Assembly: GCA_017499595.2 (NCBI GenBank)
Contig: CM039006.1
Location: 1,426,001-1,490,000 of the forward strand
Direction of reading: 5' to 3'
Source: Psilocybe cubensis
Lineage: Eukaryota
Length of the DNA: 64,000 nucleotides
Shown: piece by piece, positions 1 to 57,320 of the stretch
Layout of the letters: the number at the start of each line of letters is the position of its first letter
Position numbering within the stretch: the first letter of the stretch is position 1
Notes under the pieces: model-generated
Database searches by the model: none
The model's input: only the letters and a program-made list of their open reading frames with translations
Told to the model about the DNA's origin: nothing
Program-made: the position numbers and the translations under genes

Positions 1-2377
1 GCAATTGAGGCCTACCTGAAGGAGATCTTCAAAATCCCGTGCTGCCAGTTTCTTCATATCTGAAGCATTCCTAGCAAAACGTCGGATAGTTGTGAGGCCG
101 AAAGGGGAGACTTGGCGGTATCTAAATCTATAGTTAGTTTGAGTAAGAATCGAGATATCACGACAATACCTTTCGTTCAGAGTTGCAATGGCGTTCTGGT
201 TGCTAGAGGTATAAAGAATCCGGAGTAGGTGACTAAATAGGGCCTTCCAGACACCCAGTTCCACTTCGTGCATGAAGTCGACAGTAAACATCCGATAAAA
301 GTTGAAGCCATATTCAAATAAAGCCTTGGAAAAAGCGTTCTATGTAATATTCTTAGACAAAATACGTAGATATGAGGAAATAAAAATATACCCGAGTTGG
401 AAAAGCAGAGGTCTGTTGCAGCAAGCCATTAACCACCTTGCTGTTAACCTTTTTCCCCAAGAACAATGCTTTACGGGCAGTTTTGATGTCAAATTGACAA
501 GTTTCGCTGTCAACGCGAGCTAGCTTGAGCCGGTTTCGCATATCCATCTTTGATCCAACCTTTGGGACATTCATAGTCTGAATTAAACAACGTGGACACA
601 AGCAAGTGCCGCGACACTTGCAGCAGGACTGCAGCATTCTGCTTGTACATTAGTTATCAATCGAAATAGCGAGTAGATGTTGACTTACTTTTTGGGGTAG
701 TCATTTGAACTAAAAATAAAACGGAGATACATAGCTCGACATACTCTGTCGGCCAGTTCTACGGCCTCTCCTTCAGCATACGCTCGTTTGACATCCTCAT
801 CAAGTAATAGCCCCCAGACGCCTGTATTGACCTCGCGTCTCATATGGGTGAGCATTTCAGATGTCGCAGCTTTGCCAAACTGTCGCTGATGCCAATCTTG
901 AAAACTGTCTGTGAGCTATGACCCAAACGTTAATATGAATAGTACATGCCAGTCAATACAAACTTACTTTAGGGATATACGCAATATGGTGCGCAGCGAA
1001 TTCTTTAGGTTTCCCTCTGGTGTATTTTGACTGGTTGAGGATATACATAAGGATCGGCCATATAGAAGCATCGCCAAAACTGGTCAGGTGGGTAGAATCT
1101 GAAAAAATCCCGATACCAACGACAAAGGGCTCCAGGTGTCTGTGGGGACCTGTGCGTGGCTCTGACTTGATCTTTTCATACTCTTCATTGAAAATGTCCG
1201 CCACGTAGGACTCTGAGAATAAGCGTTCGGGTGGTTCGTCGGGTGAGGGACGCCAAAATTCTCTGTACGGTATGGTCGTATACGTCTCAGAGGTGCATTC
1301 TGCAAAGGCCTGTTTGATAACTTCTAGAGGTTTTCGATACATGACGTTTTCAACAACAAATTGAGGAACCTCCTCTTCCGAATCGAATATGAAACCGTCG
1401 CATGGCACTGGTATTGAAAAGCTGCCCTTGATCCACCCAGCTTCCGGTCGACACACTTCTGACAAAGTAGGATCTGTAGAATTTTTTTGGGTGGAGATTT
1501 CGTCCAGACGCACTGCCTCTCGAGCAGTAGAAAAGGAGGAATCAAAGTCCTTGGGGTCAAAATCCGGGTCCAGTACGACTTGGTGAATCAATTTGTCAGT
1601 ATCAGCGTAGGATTTAGTACCGTGGCCGTTGTAAAACCAAGACATGATAAGTTGAGTAGAACGATTTTTGAATAGCAAGCTCTTGTCGTCTTTTGGCTCA
1701 GAATCCAAGGACCAATCCGAAGGTAGGGCCATTGGTGTTCCCTCTGACGCCTTTCTCAAAGAGTCGGCTGGGTCTTTGGCAATATTTGGAGAATTGGACA
1801 CTGATGACAGTGTGAAATGTTCGTCAGGAGTAATAGAAGGGGGACCATAGGTATACTCTCGAAATATCCCATAGCCATTCATTGGTGTTCGATACAGACT
1901 CTCCACAGATGGAGGTTCCTGAGGCTGAGGTGGTTCCTCCTCCACGACTGGTGGTATAATTAGAGGAGGTTCGGGTGGGACCTCGTCTCGAAAGCGCTGT
2001 GGCAATCTAATAACGCGTGGAGGAAGTCCTCTAGGCCGTTCAATGGGAGGTGGTGGTGTCGGGGGATGTGGTGGTGGTGGTGGTGATTTAGGTGGAGGCG
2101 CAGGGGGCATTGGAGGTGGTACCATATCCACATCGAGATACTCATGATGGACATCAACGTCCATAGGCCCGGGCTCATTATTCAGGGTTGCCTGGTGCAA
2201 AGAACCACTGGCAACATTACTGTTCTGATTCTGCCTGCTGAAGTTTTCCTGGAACCCCTTCAGGACCTTGCTCATTGCAGCAGGATATTTTTTACATTTG
2301 TTGGTATGCTGCTTCAAGGAGCAACCTGGTACAAAGAGTTTATGGCACCCTAAGCAGGGTCTTTTTTCGTCGGACAT
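1..2377 (-). CDS. Plavaka-family transposase, multi-exon, 3' end beyond the window; possibly defective
   Basis: ATG at 2377 (MSDEKR). N-terminal CxxC..H..C finger and Pro-rich linker, then recognisable Plavaka motifs across GT-AG introns: FSDSTHLTSFGDASIWPILMYILNQSKYTRGKP..AAHHIAYIP, DYP(K)K, CLCPRC, VDFMHEVELGVWK, IRRFARNASDMKKLAARDFEDLLQ. Confidence 0.88.
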
Positions 2378-2400
2378 AATTACGGCCTGCTGAAGTACAA

Positions 2401-2700
2401 CTATCCACGCAATGAGCCTGGATAGGGAGTAGAAAATCCTTGCCCAAGCAATGAGCCTAGGCAGAGTAACGATACCCTTATCCCAGCAATGAGCCTGGAT
2501 AGGGGGGATATCCTTGCCCAAGCAATGAGCCTGGGCAGGCGAACGACACCCTTATCCCAGCAATGAGCCTGGATAGGGGGTAGAAAATCCTTGTCCTAGC
2601 AATGAGCCTGGACAGTGGATAGGAAGCTCTTATCCCGGCAATGAGCCTGGATAGCGAGCCACCAATTCGTTCTGACCCGAGCAATGAGCCTGGGTAGAGC
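2401..2700 (+). repeat. Hairpin array 1: 8 copies of stem-NN-GCAATGAGCCT-stem
   Basis: Core at 2409, 2448, 2486, 2522, 2560, 2599, 2638 and 2681 (spacing 36-43 bp). Each core is flanked by a short inverted repeat. Confidence 0.95.
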
Positions 2701-3028
2701 GAATAAGGAGAGTGCAGACATCAACCTCAGGCGTGATAGGGCGCGGTGTCGGAGTTCAAAACTTAGCGGAGTTTTGATTGGCCTAACCGGCTTACTGTAA
2801 GCAATCTCATGTTTTTTTTATGTTTTTTGAGCTCAGAATTGATTCACACATGTTTCGATGCAGGTCCAAACAATTCTTTCCGTGGTATACATGATATCTG
2901 ACCAATAGTTTGTACGAAGAAATATAGATAGTATACATAAAATTTGTTTTGTAGTATGTACGAAGGCAAAAATAGACTGTGAGTAGTGGTGTAGATCCGT
3001 GAATGAAGAAACAAGAAAAATGTGCTAC

Positions 3029-6000
3029 CTATCTACGAGGATTCCTGGTTACGGGGATATGTTCATGGACAAATGCCGCTGATCGAGCTCGCACCAATTC
3101 CCTTAGAACACGGACTGGCTTATTTTTGAGAAGGCTCTTCCAGTCTTGAAGCGTTAAAGGTTGCGCTTTGCCATTTTGAATTAATTCCAGCCTAGTCTGG
3201 TACCAGTACTCGTTGCGTTCAGTCCATTCCAGCCATCCTATCCCATTCCTGTCGATTTCATTCCATACCGCCGGGGGAGGAAACCAAGACTTGACTCCGA
3301 CCTGATTTTTAAAATCTAAGAACGACATTAAATAGAGCGATCAGTTAAATGTAGTGAACACTTACCCGTCATGAGAGAATACGACCCGATAATAATCGCA
3401 ATATCGTGTTCTGTAAGCCCGTCATCGCAGTAAGCCAGCAACTCGGCCTCTGGATTAGCGACATATCCGCGTCCATTTCTCAGCAATTCCACTGATGGGC
3501 CCTGGAGAACAGACTCTGTGCTCAGATACTCTTTGGCAATTTGTCCTACTATTCCACCCATGAGTAGCGCTGCACGACCGCGTTGTTGGTCCAGTATCTG
3601 CCGACAGGCCAGCATCGAGGACTCATAGTCGTAGTTGGTAAACTTGTAGCTGACTTTGCGGTAAAAGGTAACTTCCTTGTAGGGTTGATGCACCTGAACC
3701 ACATTTTTACGCCCGACAAGAGTTCGAAACTGCACTCCTTTGGACAAAAGTCTGTGTGCCACACTGACAACTGTATGCCCAGGATGGGACTGGAAGACTC
3801 GTAAGACATATAAAGCAGCCTCTGGGGTTTCGACTCCAATACTCCAATCAGCAGACATTCTGTCGGACTCTTCCTGAGGTGCATGTATGTCGTGATGAGC
3901 GAAAACAAATAGATTTGGGATGGGCCGATGGATGAGGCTGAGATTCCCTAAAACTTGAAGGGATAGGTAATTTTGCGGGTGGAGATCGTGAATGTCTTGA
4001 GGGAGCGGACGGTCAGTTGACCCCATCAAACCGTCATGAAACTGACAGATGAGTTGACGATCCGTGTTTGAGACAAACTGTTCTGCCCCATCCTTCCTAA
4101 ACCCAAAGTGTTGACAGGCGTGTTTCCAGCCTTCCGGTGTCTTATCCTCCTTCTTCGGGACTACAGAGGCTACGAATCCATAGCTGTATCGCAAGTTGGA
4201 GATGAGGTTGGCGGTGTCCCAATCGTAATCGTGGATTTTCGAAGCTTTATCAGTGTCGGTATCCATGGTGGAGGGGCCCGGCTCTGGACGATGTACCGGA
4301 GGCTGGGAAGGCCCCTCCTGAAATTCCTCCGTGTCCATGGGGAATGTTTCGTACTGAGGTTCATGAGGGGAAGTCGCACCACCCGAGGAAGAGTCTACAC
4401 AGGGTTCTGGGATGACGGAAACGGATTCCACACGGGGTACATCGTTGTCGGGGATGATGGACTGGGGATTGATGCGGGCAGCTTGGATAGGATAGTCGTA
4501 GATATAACCGTCCTTCCTAGGAGGGGGGTCCACAAATTGCAGATATTTTCGTGGCAAATCCACTTCATCAAAAATGTCCCACTCGTTTGAGACTGCATTG
4601 TATGTTCGTTGAGAGGGAGGCACCTTTGCAAACAGTCTCTCGTGCTTTGATTGAAGGAGGAGAACTTGCATGTATAATTCCTTCCCCCCCGGCGTCGTGA
4701 CACTTTTCCACCTATAGACCGATGTGTTGTACCCCGGGAGGGCCTCCTCTCTTTGAAGCCTTTTGATCTTTGCGTCCTCGGTCTCAGTCGCAATGATAAA
4801 GCGCTGGTTTCTCTCGCGTTTCTCCAAGAATATCGAGACGTGGTCGTACAACTCTCCTCTCCGGTGGTAGTCACCTTTGTCCATCCAATCGTGAGTGGGG
4901 AGATTTGCTATGGCTCGCTTGGCCTCTGCAAGGTCCATGTCCATGGCTCGGCTTACTATCTCCCTCAATTCTGCAACCGTGGCCTCCACCTGGTTCTCCT
5001 CCATAGCCGCCTTGACCTTGTCGGTTTGCGAGGCAAATTTTTCATACATATATTTCGTGACCAACGACGTACTGTGTTCCATTCTCAATATATGTTTGGT
5101 GGAGTGCAGCGGGCAATCATGAAATCAAAAGTAGGACCTAAGGATTAGGCCAGCGAGAGGAACACTGGGGAATCGGTTCAGAAACTTCTCAAGGGCATCC
5201 CGAACAAGGTTTGCAGGAGGCTCAAGATAGCAAAGGGTGGGGTTGTTTATGATGGCCTGTTCTGCGATGGCACACCACGGAAAGAAAACAGGAATCTGCT
5301 GGTCCAGGAAGAACTGTATCTCGGGCCTCCGATTGTCATATTCATACCAGGGAATAACTATCCCTGCACGCTGAGTGTCGGGTGAGAATACACACGCTGG
5401 CGATGTTAAAAGCCCGTCCAACCAGGATCGCTGTAGCATCGGAACCTCCTCGAGCAGCCTGGTATACCATCGGGGTAGTAACTCGCCCTGTTCTCTCACC
5501 ATCTTTCCTGCACAATACTTGTCATACTTTGCACACGCAGCAAAATATGCAAAGAATCCCATCCATACGGCAAACCAATCTCGCGCCAATTTAATCTGGC
5601 GATAAGCTTCTTCTTTCGATGTGTAGGGCTTATCGTATTTAAAGATGGAAGGCGGGGGTGGTTGACTGGCTGGTACGTGGTACCATAGCTTCATTTTGTG
5701 CGCAGCTTCCAGTAAACATTGTTCCTTAAACCGCCAATGCTTTATAGTATGAATTTCGAGCTGGTAGAGAGTGGAACCGGGTGGAGTATTATAGCTAGGA
5801 GTTACATCCAGCTCAGGCTGCCAGGTAAAGGTGTCGAAGGGGTCGGAGATAAAGGATGGGTTGAGCGGTATGAAGGACATCCACCCAAAGGTGTCTGTCC
5901 ACCAGACAGGATGCTTGACAGAGGTGGGATCTGGCTCTGCATGTTCGGGGAATGGGTGGGGGTGATTCCGCTCTGGGGCCTTGATACGGACTGGTCGGTT

Positions 6001-6138
6001 ACAATTGGGAGAGTAGTAAATTATACCGTCTTGTAGGAAGACGGAGCCCTGGGACCAGTCAAAGGAGGGCGTAGTCTGTTGTACGTAGAATTAGCAACCA
6101 AATACACCTTGATATTGTAAGATACATACGGGGGGCAT
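3029..6138 (-). pseudogene. Large transposon-associated hypothetical gene with one in-frame premature stop
   Basis: ATG at 6138 (MPP, intron, TTPSFDWSQG...). ORFs 5125-5880 and 3328-5088 share a frame and are separated only by TGA at 5125-5127 plus 12 sense codons. The last exon follows an intron near 3311-3366. C-terminal RGRAALLMGGIVG, YCDDGLT, SWFPP and WTERNEYWY motifs resemble genes I recall next to agaricomycete Plavaka transposases. Confidence 0.7.
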
Positions 6139-6181
6139 TATGGACAGTCGGGGGAGCAGGAATTCCAATTTATCTGTGCGT

Positions 6182-6379
6182 ACTGCCCTGGCAATGAGCC
6201 TGGGTAGTTTAAGCGTTCTGCCCTAGCAATGAGCCTGGGTAGTTTATGAGTTCTGCCCAAGCAATGAGCCTGGGTAGTGTCTCGCGTTCTGCCCTAGCAA
6301 TGAGCCTGGGTAGTTTGCGCGTATTGCCCGAGCAATGAGCCTGGGTAGTGAGGCTGTCCGAGCAATGAGCCTGGGTAGC
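6182..6379 (+). repeat. Hairpin array 2: 6 copies of TGYCC-NN-GCAATGAGCCT-GGGTAG
   Basis: Core at 6191, 6226, 6261, 6297, 6332 and 6362 (spacing 30-36 bp). Same invariant 11-mer as array 1. Confidence 0.95.
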
Positions 6380-6508
6380 GAAGAAGAACCAATGACGCAG
6401 GAACGTGTTGAGATTACCATGCGTGTCGGAGTTTGAAATTGCCATCAGGCGGAATCTGAATTTGGGTAGGGTTCCATTTGTTGGCTCTGTTGACTTCCGC
6501 ACCACTAC

Positions 6509-7115
6509 CACCCTTCAACCCACGGAAATACCTGGGGGTTCGTTGGGTGGCAGTCTGCTGACTACGGTGATTCCGTAGTCTGTAGGCTGCTCAAGTCGGT
6601 GCCCACACCTTTCAACCCACGGAAATACCTGGGGGTTCGTTGGGTGGCAGTCTGCTGACTACGGTGATTCCGTAGTCTGTAGGCTGCTCAAATCGGTGCC
6701 CACACCCTTCAACCCACGGAAATACCTGGGGGTTCGTTGGGTGCGGCTGCTTGACTATGGTATTTCTGTAGTCTGGCGGTTGTTCGTCTCGGAGTTTGGT
6801 GGCAGTCTGCTGACTATGGTGATTCCGTAGTCTGTAGGCTGCTCAAGTCGGTGCTCACACCCTTCAACCCACGGAAATACCTGGGGGTTCGTTGGGTGCG
6901 GCTGCTTGACTATGGCAATTCTGTACTCTGTAGGGTGCTTCTGTCGCTGCTACGGACTACCAGCCCCCTTCAACCCACGGAGATACCTGGGGGTTCGTTC
7001 GGTACGCGTATACACCCCTTCTCGTCGTCGAAAGCCCTGGCCACAAGCTTCAACGCACGGGTATACCTGGGGCGTCTTGGGTGGCTACCTCCTGGCTATG
7101 GTGATTCGCGGTGGG
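6509..7115 (+). repeat. Hairpin array 3: ~97-bp unit made of two stem-loops, 6 progressively diverged copies
   Basis: Hairpin A (CAACCCACGGAAATACCTGGGGGTT) at 6516, 6613, 6710, 6865, 6971 and 7051. Hairpin B (GACTACGG-TGATT-CCGTAGTC core) at 6560, 6657, 6753, 6811 and 6908, with a degenerate copy near 7095. Confidence 0.93.
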
Positions 7116-7307
7116 CTATTTTTATCCTCTGACAGCTCGCTGTCGATGGCGATCGCGCCTCCTTCGCCTGCTAGTTATGGCAATGGCGCGGAATAGCGCG
7201 GACATCTGTACCTCCTCAGGTGTCCATTACATAACCACTGCGCTCAGTATATGCGGAAGAGAGTTTTTTTCATCCCTTTTCTTCCCGTACCACCACCATC
7301 CACCACC

Positions 7308-9429
7308 ATGCTCACCCCGACCCAGATTGAAAAAGCCCTCACGGCTATCGATACCAACAAAGAACTCGAGTAAGCCTGAATCCCCCCCTCCCCCGTTCCC
7401 GTGCGCGTTAACCGCTAACGTTATTTGTAGATGCCCCGAACTAGCAGACACTCTGAAGGGCGCGAGATGGATTCACTAGTCCATTGACCCATTTATGAAC
7501 GTAAAGAGCGTCATCCAAGAGGGTCTCGAGTTTCTGGCCAACCATATAACGGATGGTATGACCCGACAACAAATATTGGAGTAAGTATATGCGCCTTTTT
7601 TTTCTGGGGCATTTATTTATGCATATATTAGTTTACAACCCAAGCTCTGGTCCTTCTATGAGATGCAGGACTTGATGCCCGACCTTATGGATATCATCAA
7701 GAAGTGCGAGGACAATTCTGCCTTGATTGGCAAAGTCATTGATTTGGTAAGAATTTTGTGAGGTCGCATGTACAGATCGACTAACCATACTTGTAAGGTA
7801 TCGAGTGCTGCAGCTCATTCGCGATCCGACGATCTCTTCAAGGCACATAAGTTGATCTCGGAGTTGATCCCATTTGATCTGAGGGTCCCACTTGACCTAC
7901 AGGCCTACAAACTGGCCTGTGCCAGGGTGAACCAGGGCTATAAACACCCTGCATACGCCGCTCTTTTAATCCCGCGTGTCAAGTTCGCCGAGCTTGCCGA
8001 CCTCAATGCGCGTGAAATTCTGTAAGTCGGCTTGTTATTTTCTGCGAATATGAGTTGATTTATTTGTGGATAGCGTGCGATGTGAATCACTCGAAGCCGA
8101 TACCAAAAATGGAGACGCGCTGGATTGGCCAGCTTGCTTGTATGACCCTGACATCCCATTTGACATAGACGACGAGGTCCAAGGTCTGTTTCGACCACCC
8201 TTGGGTCCCCAAGTAAGTTTTTTTTTATGTTTTGACATGTCATTGATACATATTGGCACTCTAGTTCGTCCAACGTATGCTTGTAGGCGAGGCCAACAGG
8301 CTTGGAGGACGTGCCAGCAAAGGACAGATTCACAAAGTATATGAACTAACGATAAGACTCATATGTTATTATTGCATGATGGTAAGTGGACATTGCCAGT
8401 AGTCTGTCAGTGCTAACCTCCTTCAAAGCTTGTCATTGCAATCAGCGGTAAGACTTGGCCTGAGGCGAAGAGCATTTTGAAGGCCGACCGCCTCTACGCA
8501 TCTATTCTGACGCTTCTGTTGGGTCTTTTTGATGACAATACGTGGGCCAAGGAGACTGTGGCTTGGTGGCAAGAGTAAGCGTGCCTTACGCGCTTGATTT
8601 TATGCTAATGAATTTCTAGGAACATTATCTTGCCATCTGAGCCCGTGGATCATGACAAGAAGTCGTCCCCTTTAGAAGGTAGTGCACGCGACGGACGCCT
8701 CAGAGACCCGGTAGAACGGCGTAAAGCTCAAATGGCCGCTGCGGCTCAAGCACCTGCACCTGCTCGTGCACCTGCTCGTGCACCTGCACCCGCACCCCCT
8801 CGTGCACCCACACCCGAACCTGCTCGTGTACCCACACCCGCACCTGCATCTCCTCAAGCACGCACACCCTCCTCCCACCCCGCCCCAGATAATGGGTCTG
8901 CACCAGCGCTAGCTAAAGCATTTGCAGCTGTTTCACTGGCGGAACCTGTGCCTCAACAAGTCTCCCGTCGCCGAATGGCATTAAACGCGATTAGGATCCC
9001 TTCAGAATCCCCCCCTGACCTCCCTTCCGAGGATTCTTCCTCTCTTTCTTCCGAAAACGAACGCTCCCCTTCCCCACCAGCCCCGATCAAGATCAAGGTG
9101 CGTTTTCACTCGAGATTGGTTCATTACACTAATATTATGATTAGCTCCCTGCAAAGAGGAAAGCGGCGCCACGCCGCCCTGGTCCAAAGCGTAAAGACGT
9201 GAGTGCATTTATTACATTCTCTATCTAGGGCTCATATTAGCTACAGGCACCACCTTCAGACCCCTTCGAGACCGGGGATGAGGCCCTGCCTACTCCCAAC
9301 GCTGATGCCGTTCCTGCACCCAATTCTGACGCCACCGCCGCCGACGGTGAAGAACCACCAGCTAAAAAGGCCAGGACCCAGGCCAAGGGAACGCGCCAAC
9401 CTATCAAACGTAAGGCTAAGAAATTCTGA
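7308..9429 (+). pseudogene. DUF6698-like transposon accessory gene with Pro/Ala-rich and basic tail; disrupted
   Basis: Multi-exon reading gives RSDD...GYKHPAYAALLIP, WPACLYDP..D..QGLFRP, KGQIH and WAKETVAWWQ. In-frame TAG at 7477-7479 and a further disruption near 8340. PAPAR repeats at 8745-8850. Confidence 0.62.
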
Positions 9430-9579
9430 TGTCTTTCATTGCTGTAATTATTGCTCTGCTCTGCCCTGCTTTACATACCATGCCTGTACTTTTATTACTG
9501 AATAAATAAATTTGTTCTATTATAATCTGCTGGGTGCCTCAAAATCCCATTCAATCCTCCTTATCATTGAGAAATCCAA

Positions 9580-9812
9580 TAAATTCTCGCAATGTTTTAT
9601 AACGCTCTTGATTCCTTGTCATCTCATACAGTAATTTGTTGAGATTATAAACTAGCCGCTTATTCTTTCATATTGCAATACCCAAAAATATTGTAAACCT
9701 CAAATTAATTTATTCGCACTGCAATATTTCCGGTTTCTCACAACATTTCAAGAGGGTTGTAACGCAGTATGAGAATTTCGAATAAAAAAATATTTAATTG
9801 GGTTTACAATGC
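9580..9812. repeat. Overlapping imperfect inverted repeats (subterminal-like)
   Basis: AAATTCTC...TTATAACGCTCTTGA (9581-9611) pairs imperfectly with TCAAGAGGGTTGTAA...GAGAATTT (9748-9778). ATTGTAAACCTCAAATTAA (9690) pairs with TTAATTGGGTTTACAAT (~9794). Confidence 0.6.
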
Positions 9813-11096
9813 TTTGTAATCTACCCGCACTTTTTATGATGATCAAGGATGTTGTGCATTGGACAAGTGGTTGTTGAGATATGGAAAGAAAGGTGTTGAA
9901 GAACCCATCAGAGACCCGGATGGATATTGGCCTTTATTTATGCTTTGTTTGTGGTCACCTCTTTGGCCTTTCTCCGGGATACTTTTTGACATATCTCAGC
10001 TCATAATCATCGGATTTCCATGAGTCTATATACCACAGATAGGTGTCATTTAGGGCTACACAGCCGTATAGTTTTTGTATTTTATAAGTGTTATCCTTCA
10101 CATCATATTTTGCTTTTCCTCCATTTTTGAACAACAATGCTTATTCTTCTTGTACCATCTTGTTAAGCGTTCTGGTCATTTAGCATTATAAATATAATAT
10201 GTAGAGGACCTTAGTAGCTATCTGTGAATGTAAGATATGTGCATTTAGGTGAAGTATAAGCGGTGATATGGTCATATTATGTTGCACATCCAATACCTTG
10301 TTATTAGCCTCATAACCAAGGTGTTTCCCTTCATCCTGAATGTTTCAAAGATATGTATTGGGTCTGTGGTACTATATAGAGCAGATTTACATACCTATAT
10401 GTGCTGGGAATGGCCATTCTATCCCATAATAAAATATACAAATTCTGGAGAGGATGGGGGGTAGTACCCTTAAATCTTAGAATTGCACCAAGATTTTGGG
10501 CCCTAAAAATTGGTATAATAAACGCCTCCCCATCCCTGGTTGGGCCTGAATTTATCTGATCAGGAAGGCATTTGTACAAGGGGTAGGAGGAGGGGTAGGG
10601 TGCACATCCTAGTTCAATAGGTTCCACTGCTCCAATTGAGCTGAAACTTGGCATGTACTCCGTCTAACATAAATAATAAATAATGGCATAGTCAAAAGGG
10701 TGCATGCCAGCCCCTGGAGGGTGCTATTCAACGTGCGCTTTTTGACCAAAACATCGTATGCTTAATTGCACAATAACAAGTAAAGATATTGCAATTCTAA
10801 TTTCATATTCGGATTGGGACACTTTAAAACTATATGTCTATTAAAAAACACCAAGGGAAACGGTCCAGAAATGCCCCCAAAAGCGCCCAATCCATTGCCA
10901 GCAATGCACAAAAGTAGCATAGGATGAGTGTTATTTATAGAGCCAGGAGCCAAGGGAAGGGGCAGGGACAGGGCCCTGATGTGATGGCTGTCAGCCCTAA
11001 TTCTAATATATTTAGTCCGAGTTCCTGGGCCAAAAATAGCATGCACTAATCAATCTGGTACAGGATTATCAAGCCTAGATAATCATAAGATTAGAT

Positions 11097-11337
11097 ATGA
11101 AATCATAATGAAATCACCTCTACAGCTAATGAAATCAATTCTAAATATTAATGAAATACTTCAAGATAGAAATGAAATCGCAATGAAATCATTGATAATA
11201 GTGGAATGAAACAGCCTTCAATTGAAATGAAATCAAGCCAACAAGTAATGAAATCAATTGGTTTGATATCATATTTTTGTCTAGGAATGAAATGCCCAAT
11301 AGTAATCAAATCTCTAGATAAACAATGATATGAATTA
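11097..11337 (+). repeat. Cluster of about 10 ATGAAA(TC) direct repeats
   Basis: ATGAAA at 11097, 11108, 11129, 11151, 11172, 11183, 11206, 11227, 11248 and 11287. Confidence 0.8.
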
Positions 11338-11391
11338 CTGGGTAACAGTTTAGTTCGCCTGTAGACAGTTGTCTAGATATAATGATATAAA

Positions 11392-13899
11392 TTGAAGCTA
11401 CCAGTCCGAGAGGTTGAAACTGCTGCCCGAACGGCAGTTTGGCGGACGCCCCGGATGCACCACCGGCAACTCACTCCACCTGCTGATGAAATTTGCAAAA
11501 GACGCCTGGAGGAGAGGAGAGGAAGTGGCGGTGGTCTACATGGACGTGAAAGGTGCCTTTCCAAACACAGTCATACCGGTGTTGGAACACAACATGAGGT
11601 CAGTGGGGATACCGAAGGAGTACACGAGGTGGATAAGGAACAAGAGCGAAGGGAGAGAGACGGTCATCGCGTTCGACGACTTCACGTCGCAGCCCATCGC
11701 AGTCAAAAACGGCCTGGATCAAGGATGCAATCTAGCAATGTTAAGTTACAGGATATACAACGCGGGACAAATCAAAGCGATCAGGCAGAACAAGGTCGAG
11801 CTATCAACGAATTATGCAGACGACGCGTATGTGGCGGCGGCGGGGAAGACAATGAAGGAGGCAGTACAGAGGGTGGAGGAGCTCTTTCATAGAGAAGAAG
11901 GGCCCAGAGATTGGACAAAGTCACACTTCTCGGACTACCAGTACGAGAAGTTTGTATTCAAGGGACTCACGAGGAAGAGAGTGGTCGACCCAAACAACCC
12001 GAGGAAGAGGATCGCGCCACCTACGCCGAACATCAACCTTGATGGCCAACAAATCAAGGCAAAGAACATACATAAATTCCTGGGAGTGATGGTGGACAGC
12101 AAACTGAGGTTTAAGCAACACGCCGCGTACGCGATAGCCAAAGGAACAAAGATGGTCAATCAGACAAGGAGGCTGTCACGGATGGCGAAGGGGATGAGAG
12201 GAGATTACGCGAGGAGGCTGTATTACTCGAGTGTGGTAACCAGCATGCTATACGCAGCTGATGTATGGTGCCCGACGATGGCGGGAGGAAAGGGAGAAAG
12301 GGAGAAGGGCATGAAAGGAATGTTGAGGAAGATGGACAGTGTACAACGAAGGGCAGCGCTACAGGCAACAGGTGCACTGAGGACAACACCGACGGATCTA
12401 CTATTTGCACATGCAGACATGCCACCAACAAAAGATGTCATATGAAAAATGTGCAACGCGGCGGCGCTACGGATGGCGACGCTACCGGAATCGCACCTGC
12501 TACATCACGAGATAAAGAGAGCCAGGAAGATACAACCCAAACGGCACCCAGCACCTTTGCACCATGTCATGGCAGTGAGCAAAATATTCCAAAACGACTT
12601 CGAAATGATAGAAACCACCCCTAAGGCACCAAAGTGGGAATCACCAATGGACATATTGATAGCAAAGGACAGGAAGAGAGCAAAGGAAATGGACAAGGAA
12701 GACAACAGCGACATCAGGATCTACACGGACGGGTCAGGACTGGGAGGGAAGATAGGAGGAGCGGCGGTGATTTACGAACAGGGAAGGAGCACAAAGGTAG
12801 CGAGAGCGCATCTGGGCAGCGAGAAAGAGCACACGGTGTTCAAAGGGGAATGCGTGGGGCAGATACTGGGAATGCAACTCTTGGAGGACAGGCTCGAAGA
12901 AAGAAGACCAAACCAAACTGAGACAATTACAATAAGCATGGCGGTGGACAACCAGTTGTCCCTGACAAGACATAAAGCAAGGAAGCAGGGCCCAGGGTCA
13001 TACCTGATAGAGGAGGTGCAGTGGCAGTGGGCAAAAATCAGAAAGAAATACCCAAAAGCAAGGCTGAAAATGAGATGGGTCCCAGGACACGAGGACATCA
13101 AAGGAAGCGAGAGGGTTGACAGGGAAGCTAAACGAGCGATGAAAGGCGCAGACAGAAACACCGGCCCACAGAGAGGATGCCTGAAAAAGACCCAAACTGC
13201 GAGAACTGCGAGGACAATGTACCAGAGACAATCACACACTACTTGAAGCACTGCCGAGCGTACAAGGAAATAAGAGCAGAATGGAGGAAGGAGCTGGGAC
13301 CAGACCACCCAATCGGCGTAGGACTACTAGGAGAGCTCAAAACAATACAGAGCGTGCTGCGATACGTGAAAGCCACCAAAAGATTCAAAGAAACACATGG
13401 AGAAATAGTATGCGCCGAGAGGGAGACCGAGGAAGAAGAAGCGGAGAGGAGAGAAGAAGAAGAACTGGAACTAGAGGAAACCTGGGTCTAGGAGAAGAAC
13501 AATGGACGAGACCACGAAGAGAAAACAGCGCCGGCAACACTGTGAGGCAGGCCACAGCCCAACCACCACTTCCTTTCATTCCCGATGTACATATTTCATT
13601 TCACCTTCTAATGCAACATATTACACATTCTACTGTCCCATATTTGAATTTTCTACCTTCAACACATCTCCCCACCCATTTTACAATACCGTCGTATAAC
13701 ACAGTTACCTTACTTACAGCTACTATCACACACAGAGACATAATACGCACTACGTGCGAGGTGCTACCAAAGGAGGCCCACTACAACGTAGAGTTTGACA
13801 CCATAGGAATAGTATATTAAAAGTAGAACATACAGTAGGACGTCCAGCATAAGGCCTGACCTCAATGGACAATAAATAGGATTTAAAAAAAAAAAAAAA
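11392..13899 (+). mobile_element. 5'-truncated non-LTR retrotransposon (Tad1/I-like LINE): reverse transcriptase, RNase H, C-terminal zinc motif; inactive
   Basis: RT motifs QFGGRPG, DVKGAF, GLDQG and YADD; RNase H motifs IYTDGS and WVPGH; CxxC..ETITHYLKHC. In-frame TGA at 12443 and a frame shift near 13170. AATAAA at 13871 and an A15 tail at 13885-13899. Confidence 0.93.
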
Positions 13900-22296: not shown

Positions 22297-25200
22297 GGGT
22301 TAAGAATGACTCACTGACCTACGGAGCGCAGGTATTTAAATATGATACGAACGAGGTACTTCAGATCCTCGCGTTCTGTGCACGTTTGACTGAATAACAA
22401 TGATTATTTCCATATAATCGGACCGAAGAATATTTAGAAGACTTACAAAAGTAGAAAGATCGAAGATAAACGATAAAAGGCTGAAGTAGACAATGATAAG
22501 CCAATCCGAGCTGAAAAAGTGGTGTGAACAATTTGAGCCTCCAAGGTTCCGTTGCCAATAGTTCGCTGACAAGTCACAACCTCGAGGTAATAATCTGTGT
22601 TAGAATCAATGAAACTCTGTATGCAGTGGAGGCTATATTTCCATACCTAAAACTTCGGAGGTCGACCACTTAGCATAGATTGGCGATGATGTGATCACCA
22701 ATGCCACCCTCAAAATTCCATGTTGGCGATTGAACACTGTCATCATGTGACTTTATTAGGGCAGGCTTTTTGGCGTATCCTCTTGGTATCCTTTGAGTTG
22801 CATTTGTCTTTTGGACCGCTCTATCTCAGGGTGCAACATTCGTATTGTTTTCAAGTATATGTTTTTATTATAACTTCTATGATAGCTGCTTGTGATTCTT
22901 CTATCCCTGAGTGAAACATACCGGGCACAGTAGAAGCTTCTTCTCAGTAATCACTGCACATCGGCGTCCGAAGTAAAGCTTACCAGATCTTTGCCTGCTT
23001 TTGATTATCGCAGGACATCACTGGATATTTTCCAAATATGTTACTTTCACCGTGAATCGTGCTTCCCTAAAAAATGTATCAGACCAAATCAAGGCCATAT
23101 CTTCTCGCATGATCATGTACCCTCGAACGTTGTCATTTCGGGACCAGTCATCCTGTAAAGGCGGATATGCTCCAAAGCGCTCCACAGCTCTTGATAGCAC
23201 CACAGCGCCACAGCAACGGTCCCCATCAGTACAGCTTTCTCACATAATTATGTGGCAGCATGCAGCCGATCACGGGTTGCTGTGTAGCACTATACAGCAC
23301 CCTGTAGCATGAGGACACGTTCGATGGGTACTTTTCGATCCAGGGTCTGATGCAGGGTCCTTCCCCATTAGGAATATACCTTCGGTTACCTTGTCCCGTT
23401 GTGATTATGTAGCATTTAGGGCAGGGTTTGATACCTCCCGGCCGGTCCGTGTGATAGTGGTATAGGTCTGGCGCTCTCAACCAGTGTGTTACTTGTGTTT
23501 TAAACAGGTGTTTATACCACGTCACGTGACTGTCGGAGTTTTTACATATGACCGGTAAAACGACTCCTAATTCTCATTTTTTAGGCTGTTTATGGCTTTA
23601 CCAACAATTTCTCCAATATATAAACAATAAATACAATACATATGTCACTTTTTCAAAGGCGCACAGTACCTTGGGCAGTTTGTGCGCCGTTTTCAGTCAC
23701 ATCAGGGTACGAGGTAGGGGTGTCACATGAATGTGACCCGCGAGTCACAAAGGTCGAATTTCGACAATGTTTGCAGTCTGCACGCCGGGGCATGAGCTGC
23801 TAAGGTATGAAAGGTGCGCGGTTCAATAGTGTATGGTACTTGGTATGATTTCGTGTAAAAAAATGATGTCACAGCCAAATGAGTATAAAGTAATATCTAC
23901 CTGTATGATTAAACAAAGTTATCTATGTTCCATTCACCCGGTTTGCCTTGAGCAAAGTTTGAATCATCATCGTGAGTTGTCCTTTCAAAAAATAATTTGG
24001 AGCCCGGTCCATTTGTGTCAACATTGGTGATGAGCAAAACCAGGTTTTTATCATCAAGTTGCACAAAGGAAGAAATGTCAAACCGGTCAGATGTGCGAGT
24101 GAGTTGGATGGCACCTTCAGAAGTAGAGTTGGAGATGTGCAAAGCAGAATCCATGCGGTTGACTTTGTCCAAATACTATGTACACCCATGCATACAACTT
24201 CGTACACTACTCATTACCTCCTTCCTCCTCTAGTTATATTGTATACACCCTTCACCATCGCATCCGGGTCTCACACGCTCAGAATAATACTATGACACAA
24301 TCATGGCTTCACTGACCAGGAACATCCTTCTCGTGGCTTGTGTTTCCGTACGACCGACTGCGCCTGAGTTGTCATGATTGGAACCTACATTTGGAGTGGG
24401 ATATTTTTTCTCTCTTGTGCCTCTGAGGTGGCGTTTGGTATTTTTGGGGATCGGAAGGATACATAATCGCGAATCGTGAGTTGTTTTTGCTAGGTTTGCT
24501 AGTGACAATTTTCACGCAGAGCCATCCATCGGAGATGCCGATGCAAAAATATAGCAGTCTGTATATATAAATAGACCATCCATGATAAGTTTGCAACTTG
24601 TTTTGATTCTTGACGCGCTCGCCGCTCGTTTTCCAGTCACACACATTTCGGTCACGATGAAAGAAGGGATGTTAACGGGTCGGAGCTCAGATTGTCGCAT
24701 AGTCATCTAATGCGGCAACCGGACTCCAGTTATGTAGTATTTGCGAGGCCATTATTGCAGGACTTAATAGCCAGTTGCTTTGCATCTTAAAGATATCGTT
24801 GTCAGTGCACCAACATGATGTATAATGTACTCCACGTCAAGCTGGTCTTCGCCTTCAACTATCAAATTGTCACACTCTCGAACATCAGTTAGAATTCATG
24901 CTCCTTGTCTGATTCTACAGGCACAATATTCTGGTATCATGCAGAATCCCATGCAGGAGGTCGCCACAGAAAAGTCCCTAAATCAGCAACATCCTGATGG
25001 AGTCTTCGAAGAGTCTTCAACCAAAAGGGCATATGGTGGGTGATATTTGTGGGAAACAAAATAGCATCAGTGTCGATTGCTCCGTGGGGCAGAGCCATCT
25101 AAATGTATATCAGAAGGTCCTGCTCATACTGCGGAGTGCGTCCCGTCACGAGGGTGATTGACAATATTCAATGAGCAGGAAAGCTTGTTCTATCTACTTG

Positions 25201-37257: not shown

Positions 37258-38538
37258 ATGGCCCGCACCATAGAGATATTACCACTGGAGATCATAGAAG
37301 ATATCATCGCTCTCTTGTCCGATTTCGATCGTTCTGTCTCGACAACACCTACATCCCTTCAGACATGCTCTCTGGTCTGCCACGCGTTCGTTCCTCTTTG
37401 TCAAAAGCACATCTTTCACTCTATTGTTTTGCATGATAGAGCCCCAAAATCCTCTTTTGTCAAGCTTATCAACAAAAATCCACGGATACTTGACTATGTT
37501 CACAATATTAAATACTTGGTAGAGCCTGAGGATTCTCATCTCGAAACCGGTTGTCCAACTTCCTTCGTCGACGTTCTTAAAAGCTTCACAAAGCTAACGA
37601 CAGTGATGGTATCTTTTCAATACTTCCCAAGGCAGGATTGGAACAATCTGTCCGATATAATGCGGACCGTCGTCCTTTCTATTATACATAAACCATCTGT
37701 CACCTCAGTCGGCTTGACAAACATAGACAACTTCGACCACACCACTTTGCTTCTATGCCCCAACGTCCAGGAGCTCAGACTTCGAAACGTCATGTGTACA
37801 CAGCCGGCCCCCTCTTCAACAAGCACGGCCGCATATACGCCAATCAAACCACGTCTGCTCGAAATAATGTCTTGCATAGAAATGTTAAATGTGCATTACG
37901 ACGTCGGAACAGCGATATTTGACCTTACAGAATTAAAACATATCGAACTTCAAGGCCGTGGTCCACTTGTTCCTGCAAAAAATATTCTAAAAACGGCCAA
38001 AGCACTCGAATCTGCCCTTGTCGAAATTAATTGTAGGTATTTCTTTGATAGCTGAGAAATATATGCTTACATATATATAACATTTTCAAGTTGCAAACGT
38101 GGATGACTCTGATGACTTGATCTCTCTATTGATAGGATCTTCCAAGACTCTGAAACGCTTAACTCTGGAACCAAATCATATTGGTCTGACCACAAATTAT
38201 TACGACCTCTTAACGAGGATGGGGGGGGGGGGGGGGGGGGGGGGGTACTAAAGAGATTATCTGGCCAAAATATTATCTCGACATTAAATATTGAACTCTA
38301 CGCCATTTTGGGGCCAGAACCAACTATCGGCGAAGAGTGGAATATTTTCGACCAAGTTCTTTTGACTCCCGGATGGTCGTCTCTTAGGGAGTTTAACCTA
38401 ACTATTGAAGATTCTCGAGGCGAAATAATCATGCGGGCATTGCGATCGCTTCCTCAAACTTATCTCCAAGGACTAGCAACTGGCAGCGAAACCGTCAATT
38501 TTAATTTCGAGGTCGTAGATATTTTCGAGGACTGGTAG
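37258..38538 (+). CDS. F-box-like protein; frame broken by a G25 run as sequenced
   Basis: LPLEIIEDII...LQTCSLVCHAFVPLCQKHIF; one intron at ~38033-38090; paralogous to the next gene (GQNIISTL in both). Confidence 0.78.
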
Positions 38539-54140: not shown

Positions 54141-57100
54141 AACATTCTAGGAATATTGCATATGATAACATTCCAGAATTTATGCATAGTGCTTGACATG
54201 CGGACTAGAGCTATGCAAATTTCCAACATTCTGAAAATGTGTGAATGTTGCTGTATAGTAAACATTGCATGTGATAACATTCCGGAATTGATGGCTAGTG
54301 CATGACGTGCAGACTAGAGCTAAGCTAATTTCCAACATTCTGGATGCATACAAATGTTGCTGCATAGTCAACATTGCATGTCATAACATTCCTGAATTGA
54401 TGGGCAGTACTTGACATGTGGACTAGAGCTGTGCTAATTTCCAACATTCTGGAAATGTGTGAATGTTGCTGCATAGTAAACATTGCATGTGATAATATTC
54501 CGGAATTGATGGCTAGTGATTGATGTGTGGACTAGAACTATGCAAATTTCCAACATTCTGGAAGCATATAAATGTTGCTGCATAGTAAACATTGCATGTC
54601 ATAACATTCCAGAATTCATGCGTAGTGCTTGACGTGCAGACCAGAGCTATGCAAATTTCCAACATTCTGGAAATATGCAAATGTTGCTGCATAGTAAACA
54701 TTTCAGGAATATTGCATATGATAACATTCTGGAATTCATGCATGGTGATTGACGTGTGGACTAGAACTATGCAAATTTCCAACATTCTGGAAGCGTATGA
54801 ATGTTGCTGCATAGTAAACATTGCATGTCATAACATTCCTGAATTGATGGGCAGTGCTTGATGTGTGGACTAGAGCTGTGCTAATTTCCAATATTCTGGA
54901 AATATGTGAATGTTGCTGTATAGTAAACATTGCATGTGATAACATTCTGGAATTGATGGCTAGTACATGACATGCGGACTAGAACTGTGCAAATTTTCAA
55001 CATTCTGGAAATGTATGAATGTTGCTACATAGTAGACATTACATGTCATAATATTCCAGAATTGATGGATAGTGCTTGACATGCGGACTAGCACTGTGCA
55101 AATTTTCAACATTCTGCAAACATACAAATGTTGCTGCATGGTAAACATTTCAGGAATATCACATATGATAATATTCCGGAATTCATGTGTAGTGATTGAC
55201 GCGTGGACTAGAGCTATGCAAATTTCCAACATTCTGGAAGCGTGCAAATGTTGCTGCATAGTAAACATTGCATGTCATAATATTCCTGAATTGATGGGCA
55301 GTGCTTGACGTGTGGACTAGAGCTGTGCTAATTTCCAACATTCTGGAAATGTGTGAATGTTGCTGCATAGTAAACATTGCATGTCATCACATTCCTGAAT
55401 TGATGGGCAGTGCTTGACGTGTGGACTAGAGCTGTGCTAATTGCCAACATTCTGGAAATGTGTGATTGTTGCTGCATAGTAAACATTGCATGTGATAACA
55501 TTCCGGAATTGATGGCTAGTGCTTGACATGCGGACTAGCACTGTGCAAATTTTCAACATTCTGCAAACGTGCAAATGTTGCTGCATAGTAAACATTTCAG
55601 GAATATTGCATATGATAACATTCTGGAATTCATGCATGGTGATTGACGTGTGGACTAGAGCTATGCAAATTTCCAACATTCTGGAAGCGTATGAATGTTG
55701 CTGCATAGTAAACATTGCATGTCATAACATTCCTGAATTGATGGGCAGTGCTTGATGTGTGGACTAGAGCTGTGCTAATTTCCAACATTCTGGAAATGTG
55801 TGATTGTTGCTGCATAGTAAACATTGCATGTGATAACATTCCGGAATTGATGGCTAGTGCTTGACATGCGGACTAAAACTGTGCAAATTTTCAACATTCT
55901 GGAAATGTATGAATGTTGCTACATAGTAGACATTACATGTCATAATATTCCAGAATTGTTGGGTAGTGCTTGACGTGCAGACCAGAGCTATGCAAATTTC
56001 CAACATTCTGGAAGCGTGCAAATGTTGCTGCATAGTAAACATTGCATGTCATAACATTCCTGAATTGATGGGCAGTACTTGACATGTGGACTAGAGCTGT
56101 GCTAATTTCCAACATTCTGGAAATGTGTGAATGTTGCTGCATAGTAAACATTGCATGTGATAATATTCCGGAATTGATGGCTAGTGATTGATGTGTGGAC
56201 TAGAACTATGCAAATTTCCAACATTCTGGAAGCATATGAATGTTGCTGCATAGTAAACATTGCATGTCATAACATTCCAGAATTCATGCGTAGTGCTTGA
56301 CGTGCAGACCAGAGCTATGCAAATTTCCAACATTCTGGAAATATGCAAATGTTGCTGCATAGTAAACATTTCAGGAATATTGCATATGATAACATTCTGG
56401 AATTCATGCATGGTGATTGACGTGTGGACTAGAACTATGCAAATTTCCAACATTCTGGAAGCGTATGAATGTTGCTGCATAGTAAACATTGCATGTCATA
56501 ACATTCCTGAATTGATGGGCAGTGCTTGATGTGTGGACTAGAGCTGTGCTAATTTCCAATATTCTGGAAATATGTGAATGTTGCTGTATAGTAAACATTG
56601 CATGTGATAACATTCTGGAATTGATGGCTAGTGCATGACATGCGGACTAGAACTGTGCAAATTTTCAACATTCTGGAAATGTATGAATGTTGCTACATAG
56701 TAGACATTACATGTCATAATATTCCAGAATTGATGGGTAGTGCTTGACGTGCAGACCAGAGCTATGCAAAGTTCCAACATTCTGGAAGCGTAGGAATGTT
56801 GCTGCATAGTAAACATTGCATGTCATAACATTCCAGAATTAATGGGTAGTGCTTGACATAACATTCCAGAATTAATGGGTAGTGCTTGACGTGCAGACCA
56901 GAGCTATGCAAATTTCCAACATTTTGGAAATGTGCAAGTGTTGCTGCATAGTAAACATTTCAGGAATATCACATATGATAAGATTCTGGAATTCATGCGT
57001 AGTGATTGACGTGTGGACTAGAGCTATGCACATTTCCAACATTCTGCAAACGTGCAAATGTTGCTGCATAGTAAACATTTCAGGAATATCACACATGATA

Positions 57101-57320
57101 ACATTCCGGAATTCATGCGTAGTGATTGACGTGTGGACTAGAGCTATGCAAATTTCCAACATTCTGGAAGCGTATAAATGTTGCTGCATAGTAAACATTG
57201 CATGTCATAACATTCCAGAATTAATGGGTAGTGACTGACATGTGGACTAGAGCTATGCAAATTTCCAACATTCTGGAAACGTGCAAATGTTACTGCATAG
57301 TAAAAATTTTAGGAATATTG
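54141..57320 (+). repeat. Tandem satellite of about 29 units of 109 or 120 bp with higher-order structure
   Basis: The GACTAGAGC landmark recurs every 109 bp, or every 120 bp when an 11-bp insert (TCAGGAATATT-like) is present. Confidence 0.97.

Follow-up and report, generated by a model that had tools for sequence, protein, structure and literature searches.

Arrays of hairpin-capable repeats with an invariant core precede both genes of a PlavakaA-like transposon

Directly 5′ of each of the two genes of one transposable element, and in the same orientation relative to those genes, lies an array of short repeats that can fold as hairpins around an invariant core. We analysed these arrays in a window of 64,000 nucleotides, the whole stretch of DNA under study (Table 1). 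Judged from its genes, the host element is a multi-copy PlavakaA-like DNA transposon whose nearest annotated proteins come from Psilocybe cubensis. The hairpin arms do change in step, at two positions only, and selection for structure is partly supported. As the best explanation we propose, with a confidence slightly short of even, that the arrays would be multimerised docking sites for a sequence-specific protein controlling both genes, akin to CACTA subterminal repeats. The complementarity of the arms may reflect a recognised hairpin form, in DNA or in leader RNA, and may equally reflect templated mutation of palindromes.

Table 1 Genes, repeat arrays and terminus-like motifs of the element
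Feature	Position	Strand	Details
Plavaka transposase gene	1..2377, runs off window start	-	Pfam PF18759, E 3.2e-11
Array 1, 8 hairpin-capable units (u1-u8)	2399..2699	+	Centre spacing 39, 38, 36, 38, 39, 39, 43 nt
Terminus-like motif TGTCGGAGTTC	2747..2757	+	49 nt past distal edge of array 1
ORF A, 976 aa in relatives	3029..6138; exons 6138-6130, 6075-3366, 3315-3029	-	PF28437 by precomputed annotation
Array 2, 6 units (u9-u14)	6181..6380	+	Spacing 35, 35, 36, 35, 30 nt
Terminus-like motif TGTCGGAGTTT	6424..6434	+	45 nt past distal edge of array 2

A window scan returned 14 exact copies of the 10-mer GCAATGAGCC, all on the + strand, with core starts at 2409, 2448, 2486, 2522, 2560, 2599, 2638 and 2681 in array 1 (cores spanning 2409-2690) and at 6191, 6226, 6261, 6297, 6332 and 6362 in array 2 (6191-6371). 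With up to one mismatch allowed, 17 matches were obtained against a shuffle mean of 4.69 (largest 13), a count that 0/100 shuffles reached. A covariance model made from the 14 units detected no further unit in the window, its next best match being the opposite strand of u1 (E 0.051). Both arrays were also detected by Tandem Repeats Finder, which assigned array 1 a period of 74 nt (3.3 copies, 84% matches) along with a 39-nt period. The longer period and an internal 71-nt pair at 93% identity back the proposal of the first-pass annotation that A- and B-type units alternate through duplication of dimers; u6 and u8 are variant types. Overall likeness between the two arrays is merely 67-71%. A coding repeat was set aside, because periods of 35-43 shift the reading frame, and a mimic of the tRNA anticodon arm was dropped, ARAGORN finding 0 tRNA or tmRNA.

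Units were numbered outwards from the T of AATGA, taken as the centre. The conserved block measures 25 nt, C/T-T-R-Y-C-C-N-N-GCAATGAGCCT-G-G-R-Y-A-G, and is repeated eight and six times in a single orientation. The first-pass annotation described its loop as invariant. This is right for the 11 nt of GCAATGAGCCT (columns -4 to +6), which are identical in 14/14 units; the loop so described also holds freely varying 5′ letters at -6 (all four letters, 1.99 bits) and -5 (A in 11 units, G in 2, C in 1), and on the 3′ side positions 5-6 are fixed as CT in all units. Positions 3-4 are GC/GC in every unit, giving the further closure GC-AATGA-GC that had been suggested, in 14/14. In the stem, positions 7-8 are CC/GG with the single exception of an A at +7 in unit 2; at position 9, eight units pair C-G, five T-A and one T.G; at position 10, three pair G-C, five A-T and six G.T; and position 11 is T-A in 13/14 units, with G always at +12. 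Columns past +-13, like column -6, carry 1.1-2.0 bits and are thus saturated, and arm positions 9 and 10 vary by transitions only.

The arm combinations reported earlier were all recovered: TATCC/GGATA in units 1, 3, 5 and 7, TGCCC/GGGCA in unit 4 and, with one C x A mismatch, in unit 2, TGTCC/GGACA in unit 6 and ACCC/GGGT in unit 8. Array 1 holds four Watson-Crick arm types. The outer extensions are likewise present, CCC/GGG in unit 3 lying beyond a T.G, GCTC/GAGC in unit 7 having a 1-nt offset and GTTCT/AGAGC in unit 8 including a bulged G and one T.G. Overlooked at that stage was array 2, where the arms of all six units are CTGCCC/GGGTAG, with a G.T at position 10. The broader picture of varying arms around a fixed loop stands in that the arms change in step; the inner arm CC/GG, like the outer A and G, varies no more than the loop. 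Complementarity is kept while arm sequence changes, as expected if structure and loop were selected, with just two base pairs covarying. The corollary that stem sequence was not selected is too strong, since arm columns -8, -7, +8 and +11, together with +12, never vary.

The transposase likely starts at codon 2377-2375 (MSDEKRPCLGCHKLF...), 23 nt from array 1, and would begin with an N-terminal CxxC...HxxxxC finger. Its nearest relative, a 1234-aa hypothetical protein of Psilocybe cubensis with 98% identity, carries PF18759 as other relatives do and is annotated from the second Met (2272-2270). The finger after the first Met also begins 7/29 relatives, and 2377-2375 was therefore taken as the start. 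Around the second Met, GCAATGAGCA (2269-2278, minus strand) is one letter off the core; it was rejected as a real core copy, such a match being at chance level for the window. The start codon of ORF A lies 44 nt from array 2. Its product best matches a 976-aa P. cubensis hypothetical protein (94%), within a family of 1176 representative clusters at E up to 0.001 and 96 at E up to 1e-30. A Pfam match for ORF A was absent in the Pfam profile library, and the best protein atlas score was 0.75. For the N-terminal 320-residue domain we obtained a confident model (pLDDT 88.5) without a convincing fold match (Foldseek best E 1.8; VIA-align best Z 4.5, all helical bundles), and a search against PDB sequences gave none at E up to 1. 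The same search with the C-domain, whose model was unusable (pLDDT 47), gave four chance-level rows.

The window is eukaryotic and its genes are spliced. The stretch was found in twelve DNA runs from four studies, nine of which contain at least half its words; no RNA run was among those listed. Raw-read depth in run X13 is ~350-400 throughout 1800-7200 against a single-copy expectation of ~36x, itself estimated from 1632 M sequenced letters and an assembly of 40-47 Mb, which suggests a copy number of roughly ten. The window also contains a retroelement within a few kb of the Plavaka element, with ORFs for reverse transcriptase (RVT_1) and RNase H at 11396-13246 on the + strand.

Beyond the distal edge of each array stands a motif of terminal type. 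TGTCGGAGTT occurs exactly at 2747 and 6424, and also at 23531, with a one-mismatch copy at 6787. A second CGGAGTT copy follows the 2747 motif at ~2765-2775, and the related motif GGCGGAATCTG follows the 6424 motif at ~6448-6458. The supplement of PMC12730594 prints six PlavakaA consensus sequences, all of which start with TGTCGG or TGTCGC, and TGTCGGAGTT equals the 5′ end of 6/6 of them; the available text of the same paper describes the termini of PlavakaA as TGT..ACA. From one module to the other, the spacer that separates motif from array shows a weak likeness, which runs on across the motif; read depth is flat across 2747 and 6424. The flat depth and the homology across the motif led us to set aside an arrangement of three elements, tandem or nested, with ends at 2747 and 6424, and to read one upstream module that was duplicated. 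On this comparison of spacers, each array belongs to a duplicated ~400-nt upstream module that includes a copy of the terminal motif.

Read in gene sense, the terminal motif is ...CTCCGACA, a 3′-type end with array and gene on its outer side. Its orientation in both modules is away from the genes and runs counter to the usual PlavakaA layout, in which, as seen by eye in two consensus sequences printed with PMC12730594, a TGTCGG end is followed by an ATG within 200-300 nt. The search did not locate the true ends of the element, TCCGACA being absent from the + strand between 7 and 31 kb, and the arrays therefore cannot be called 'subterminal'.

Other repeats were recorded in the window. Distal to array 2, a second hairpin-rich repeat region at 6498-7107 is built of 97- and 155-nt units, each with AACCC-N14-GGGTT and a stem-loop GACTACGG-TGATT-CCGTAGTC; one variant has C>T in both arms at CpGs (GACTATGG...CTGTAGTC), and many read joints (for example 6898>7005, 67 reads) show that unit number there differs between element copies. 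A 236-bp stretch at 23531-23766, bounded by TGTCGGAGTTT and inverted TGTCGAAATTC and flanked by AC/AT without a clean 2-bp duplication, may be a miniature PlavakaA-type element. In an AT-rich stretch (GC 0.34-0.38), a satellite at 54155-57308 comprises 109-nt units (24 copies) with a 447-nt higher-order period (7 copies), and 38221-38245 is a run of 25 G.

The contrast between an invariant, asymmetric core and the saturated spacers next to it argues for a recognition site, present in repeats, that controls the element. Survival of the core in two diverged modules points the same way, as does its position before both genes and beside a terminal-type motif, and array homogenisation does not explain the invariance, given that neighbouring spacers differ. 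The units would then form the repeated cis-element of a transposon control module, on which one protein would dock, be it the N-terminal zinc finger of the transposase, ORF A or a host factor. By reading the invariant 11-13 nt, this protein could couple or limit expression of both genes. The complementary arms would make each site a dyad able to extrude as a hairpin, and selection on the hairpin form, helped or mimicked by templated (quasi-palindrome) mutation, would keep them complementary. Such control would follow the example of En/Spm, where TNPA acts at subterminal repeats overlapping the promoter; in the available part of PMC2613891, TNPA is described as binding the subterminal repeats of CACTA elements and as a regulator of its own element. 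In PlavakaA-1_SLL and PlavakaA-2_SLL, whose opening 400 nt are printed in the supplement of PMC12730594, short tandem repeats can be made out by eye between terminus and ATG. Several observations count against docking sites. All units share one orientation, unlike En/Spm motifs; in gene sense the array lies outside a 3′-type end; ORF A gave no nucleic-acid-binding lead in family, sequence or structure searches; and a protein that reads the duplex gives no reason for complementary arms in four versions.

We assessed the hairpins by folding and by the statistics of their arms. Every unit folds to one common hairpin, and array 1 folding against shuffles gave z values of -6.70 (+ strand) and -7.21 (- strand). 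RNAalifold, a check proposed with the first-pass annotation, returned the same structure from the 14 units with a small covariation term (-0.97 of -10.07 kcal/mol). Aligned as 12 distinct rows with 8 pairs, these units gave 96 cells, of which 97.9% were paired against a shuffle mean of 94.4% (1/500 shuffles as high), and pairing fell to 22.9-50.0% when the partner column was slid by 1-3. The covariation score was 0.305 compared with 0.215 in shuffles, 1/500 of which scored as high. Pairs changed on both sides (1) and further pair types (5) were matched by 458/500 and 450/500 shuffles, respectively, so the covariation signal rests on two column pairs, 6-24 (CG 8, UA 5, UG 1) and 5-25 (GU 6, AU 5, GC 3), the sole pairs varying on both sides. 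When the left half of a unit was joined to the right arm of units of another type, 0 chimeras matched native stability for u3, u4, u5, u7 and u8, 1 did so for u2 and for u6, and 5/10 for u1. Swapping the outer flanks, from position 13 outwards, left native pairing best for u3, u5, u7, u8 and u13; array 2 had no native-pairing advantage in the swap test.

Hairpins of this kind might act as RNA, either in the mRNAs of ORF A and the transposase, as part of their 5′ leaders (minus strand, loop UCAUU), or in an upstream + strand transcript (loop AAUGA). There they could form a multivalent platform for an RNA-binding protein or a translational brake before the AUG, with selection on the stem making the arms covary. 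We regard this reading as rather unlikely. Both arrays lie so close to the start codons (23 and 44 nt) that ordinary leaders would include them, and the gene-sense strand is free of ATG for ~340 and 281 nt before those codons, in a region where ATG occurs at 0.017 per nt, although this stretch is repetitive and lends correspondingly little weight. The same hairpin arises from every unit, unit-specific outer extensions occur in u3/u5, u7, u8 and u13, and positions 9 and 10 vary by transitions through a G.T intermediate, the usual path of RNA stems. Position 5 is paired in 13/14 units on the minus strand (G.U 11, G-C 2) and in 2 on the plus strand. Yet the strands disagree. Summed unit energies favour minus for array 1 (-102.1 versus -90.0 kcal/mol for plus) and plus for array 2 (-76.1 versus -59.2 kcal/mol for minus), in the latter case because on the mRNA strand each of the six units has A x C in place of its G.T, and neither strand folds better when both arrays are taken together. 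Rfam 15 gave 0 matches at E up to 1 over positions 1-12000, and with two covarying pairs in stems of 5-6 bp the power is low. A more specific version, in which 6-8 structure-selected stem-loops in both leaders would form an MS2-type array read by ORF A and gating the transposase, the arms being products of true compensatory evolution, seems to us improbable.

The hairpins might alternatively be recognised as single-stranded or cruciform DNA during transposition, at end or accessory sites, as in HUH-type elements. Terminus-like motifs stand close to the arrays, more hairpin-rich repeats follow at 6498-7107, and the units can fold as DNA. With DNA parameters, however, the hairpins are weak (-2.4 to -8.5 kcal/mol per unit, + strand); the transposase is of the Plavaka type (CMCT, DDE-type) and not an HUH enzyme, and the arrays stand before genes rather than at demonstrated ends. 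We consider such a role very unlikely.

Raw reads place the variation within the window against that of other copies of the element. The window's copy has decayed, carrying both a private nonsense mutation and private stem mutations. ORF A contains an in-frame TGA at 5127-5125, a CGA>TGA change where the relative has Arg, and position 5127 is A in the window and G in 320/320 X13 reads. The mismatch of unit 2 at 2459 is private to the window, with G in 348/348 reads, as are the TGTCC arm of unit 14 (6357) and the T at position 12 of unit 13 (6324). Among the 40 best-supported window-versus-read differences, from a total of 257, 34 have A/T in the window and G/C in reads. Over 1800-7200, differences from the read majority are almost only G>A and C>T, a signature that resembles RIP-like change or methyl-cytosine deamination in a dead copy. 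The arrays are hit at about the background rate in the window copy, which indicates that core invariance is not a mutational cold spot. Unit number of array 2 varies between copies, as read joints 6187>6261, 6245>6285 and 6295>6361 attest (skipping 73, 39 and 65 nt); among the joints listed from X13 reads, none changes the unit number of array 1. Contigs of other organisms from three runs are 95-99% alike and add no new arm variant.

Comparisons among units suggest how the arm variants arose. Between the dimers u1-u2 and u5-u6 the likeness is 89% over 63 nt, and their seven differences include both complementary changes from TGCCC/GGGCA to TGTCC/GGACA, indicating that u6 changed within a B-type background. 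A and B types differ at positions 9 and 10 in both arms. Unit 8 has the left flank CGTTCTG and the right arm GGGTAG common to array 2, yet A-T at position 10. We infer a history of about three completed double changes and one half-step, the G.T present in all array 2 units. Every arm change is a G:C to A:T transition.

This uniform direction is also compatible with a minisatellite in a transposon promoter that has no selected structure. Quasi-palindrome template switching, arm-to-arm conversion or context-dependent C-to-T change in both arms would keep the arms complementary, and tandem duplication would spread a few such events. G:C to A:T is the dominant change of the element family (34/40, above), the nonsense codon likewise reads CGA>TGA, and a palindrome offers the same context on both strands. 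Few events are needed where A-B dimers were duplicated, pair and pair-type counts do not exceed shuffles, and the G.T stays uncorrected in 6/6 array 2 units. Template switching is reported to create and maintain hairpins in the available part of 10.1101/2021.04.15.439925. Left unexplained are 11-13 invariant letters beside saturated spacers and a fully variable column -6, and the presence of the same core in two modules 67-71% alike. Template switching should also symmetrise positions 5-6, which are asymmetric in 14/14 units (right CT fixed, left free), and the chance of a compensating pair among the u2-to-u6 differences is ~0.06 by a rough count, three such events together probably being unlikely. 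We judge this reading, in which no structure is selected, unlikely, and retain docking sites as the preferred one.

Searches for related arrays were made in several collections. A metagenome scan for two cores 18-36 nt apart gave at least 119 stretches, those checked being unrelated tandem repeats rather than homologous arrays; one among the matches listed has CCAA-core-TGG (2 units, no further arms). Contigs of prokaryote genomes gave 3 loci, all unrelated repeats of bacterial MAGs, and viral contigs gave 0. Among the papers listed on Plavaka, and on transposable elements or tandem repeats of P. cubensis, we found no description of these repeats, and those listed as containing the core motif deal with other subjects (HIV, cell signalling). 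The core motif is absent from the supplement of PMC12730594, where sequences are given to 400 letters, and in the available text of that paper, which reconstructs Plavaka elements, the words subterminal, tandem repeat and hairpin do not occur.

Mushroom-forming fungi carry Plavaka elements in abundance, and the cis-acting sequences of these elements are barely described. The same invariant motif before both genes, beside a terminal-type motif, offers a concrete handle on the regulation of such an element, and the module suggests a testable role for the large ORF A family. Should the hairpin form be what is recognised, the arrays would count among the few natural arrays of protein-binding stem-loops; if it is not, they would be a clean example of palindrome mutation mechanics imitating compensatory evolution.

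Several known systems share parts of this organization. Like REP/BIME and IS200/IS605-type repeats, the units are tandem, hairpin-forming and next to a transposase gene; those systems are bacterial and work through HUH (Y1) enzymes on single-stranded DNA, whereas the host here is eukaryotic and the transposase Plavaka/DDE-type. The Su(Hw) sites in the leader of gypsy and the A-repeat RNA hairpins of Xist each comprise a short core repeated 6-12 times between variable spacers, located shortly after a promoter or at a transcript's 5′ end, and recruit proteins multivalently. They differ in organism, sequence and protein, and transcription or binding of the arrays described here is hypothetical. 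The template-switch hairpins of Monttinen and Loytynoja (10.1101/2021.04.15.439925) resemble our units as short inverted repeats in which one event changes both arms; the process, as set out in the available part of that work, does not predict the invariant asymmetric core or the lasting asymmetric internal loop seen here. CACTA repeats are direct and inverted and cluster within a few hundred bp of the termini. In the arrays described here, 14/14 units share one orientation, each unit is an inverted repeat with covarying arms, and a second array precedes a second gene far from any demonstrated end; the terminal-type motif TGTCGGAGTT lies 45-49 nt from each array, in an element whose true ends were not located. 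ORF A and TNPA are unrelated as far as compared, and docking is here putative. The host element nevertheless falls within the CACTA/EnSpm-related (CMCT) group (PF18759, E 3.2e-11), in keeping with the relationship of Plavaka transposases to EnSpm given in the available text of PMC12730594. As in the subterminal repeats of En/Spm, Tam1 and Tgm, a short family-specific motif occurs in many copies in a CMC/CACTA-type element, in arrays that adjoin a terminal-type motif and a promoter, and in the CACTA system, according to the available part of PMC2613891, an element-encoded binding protein regulates the element.
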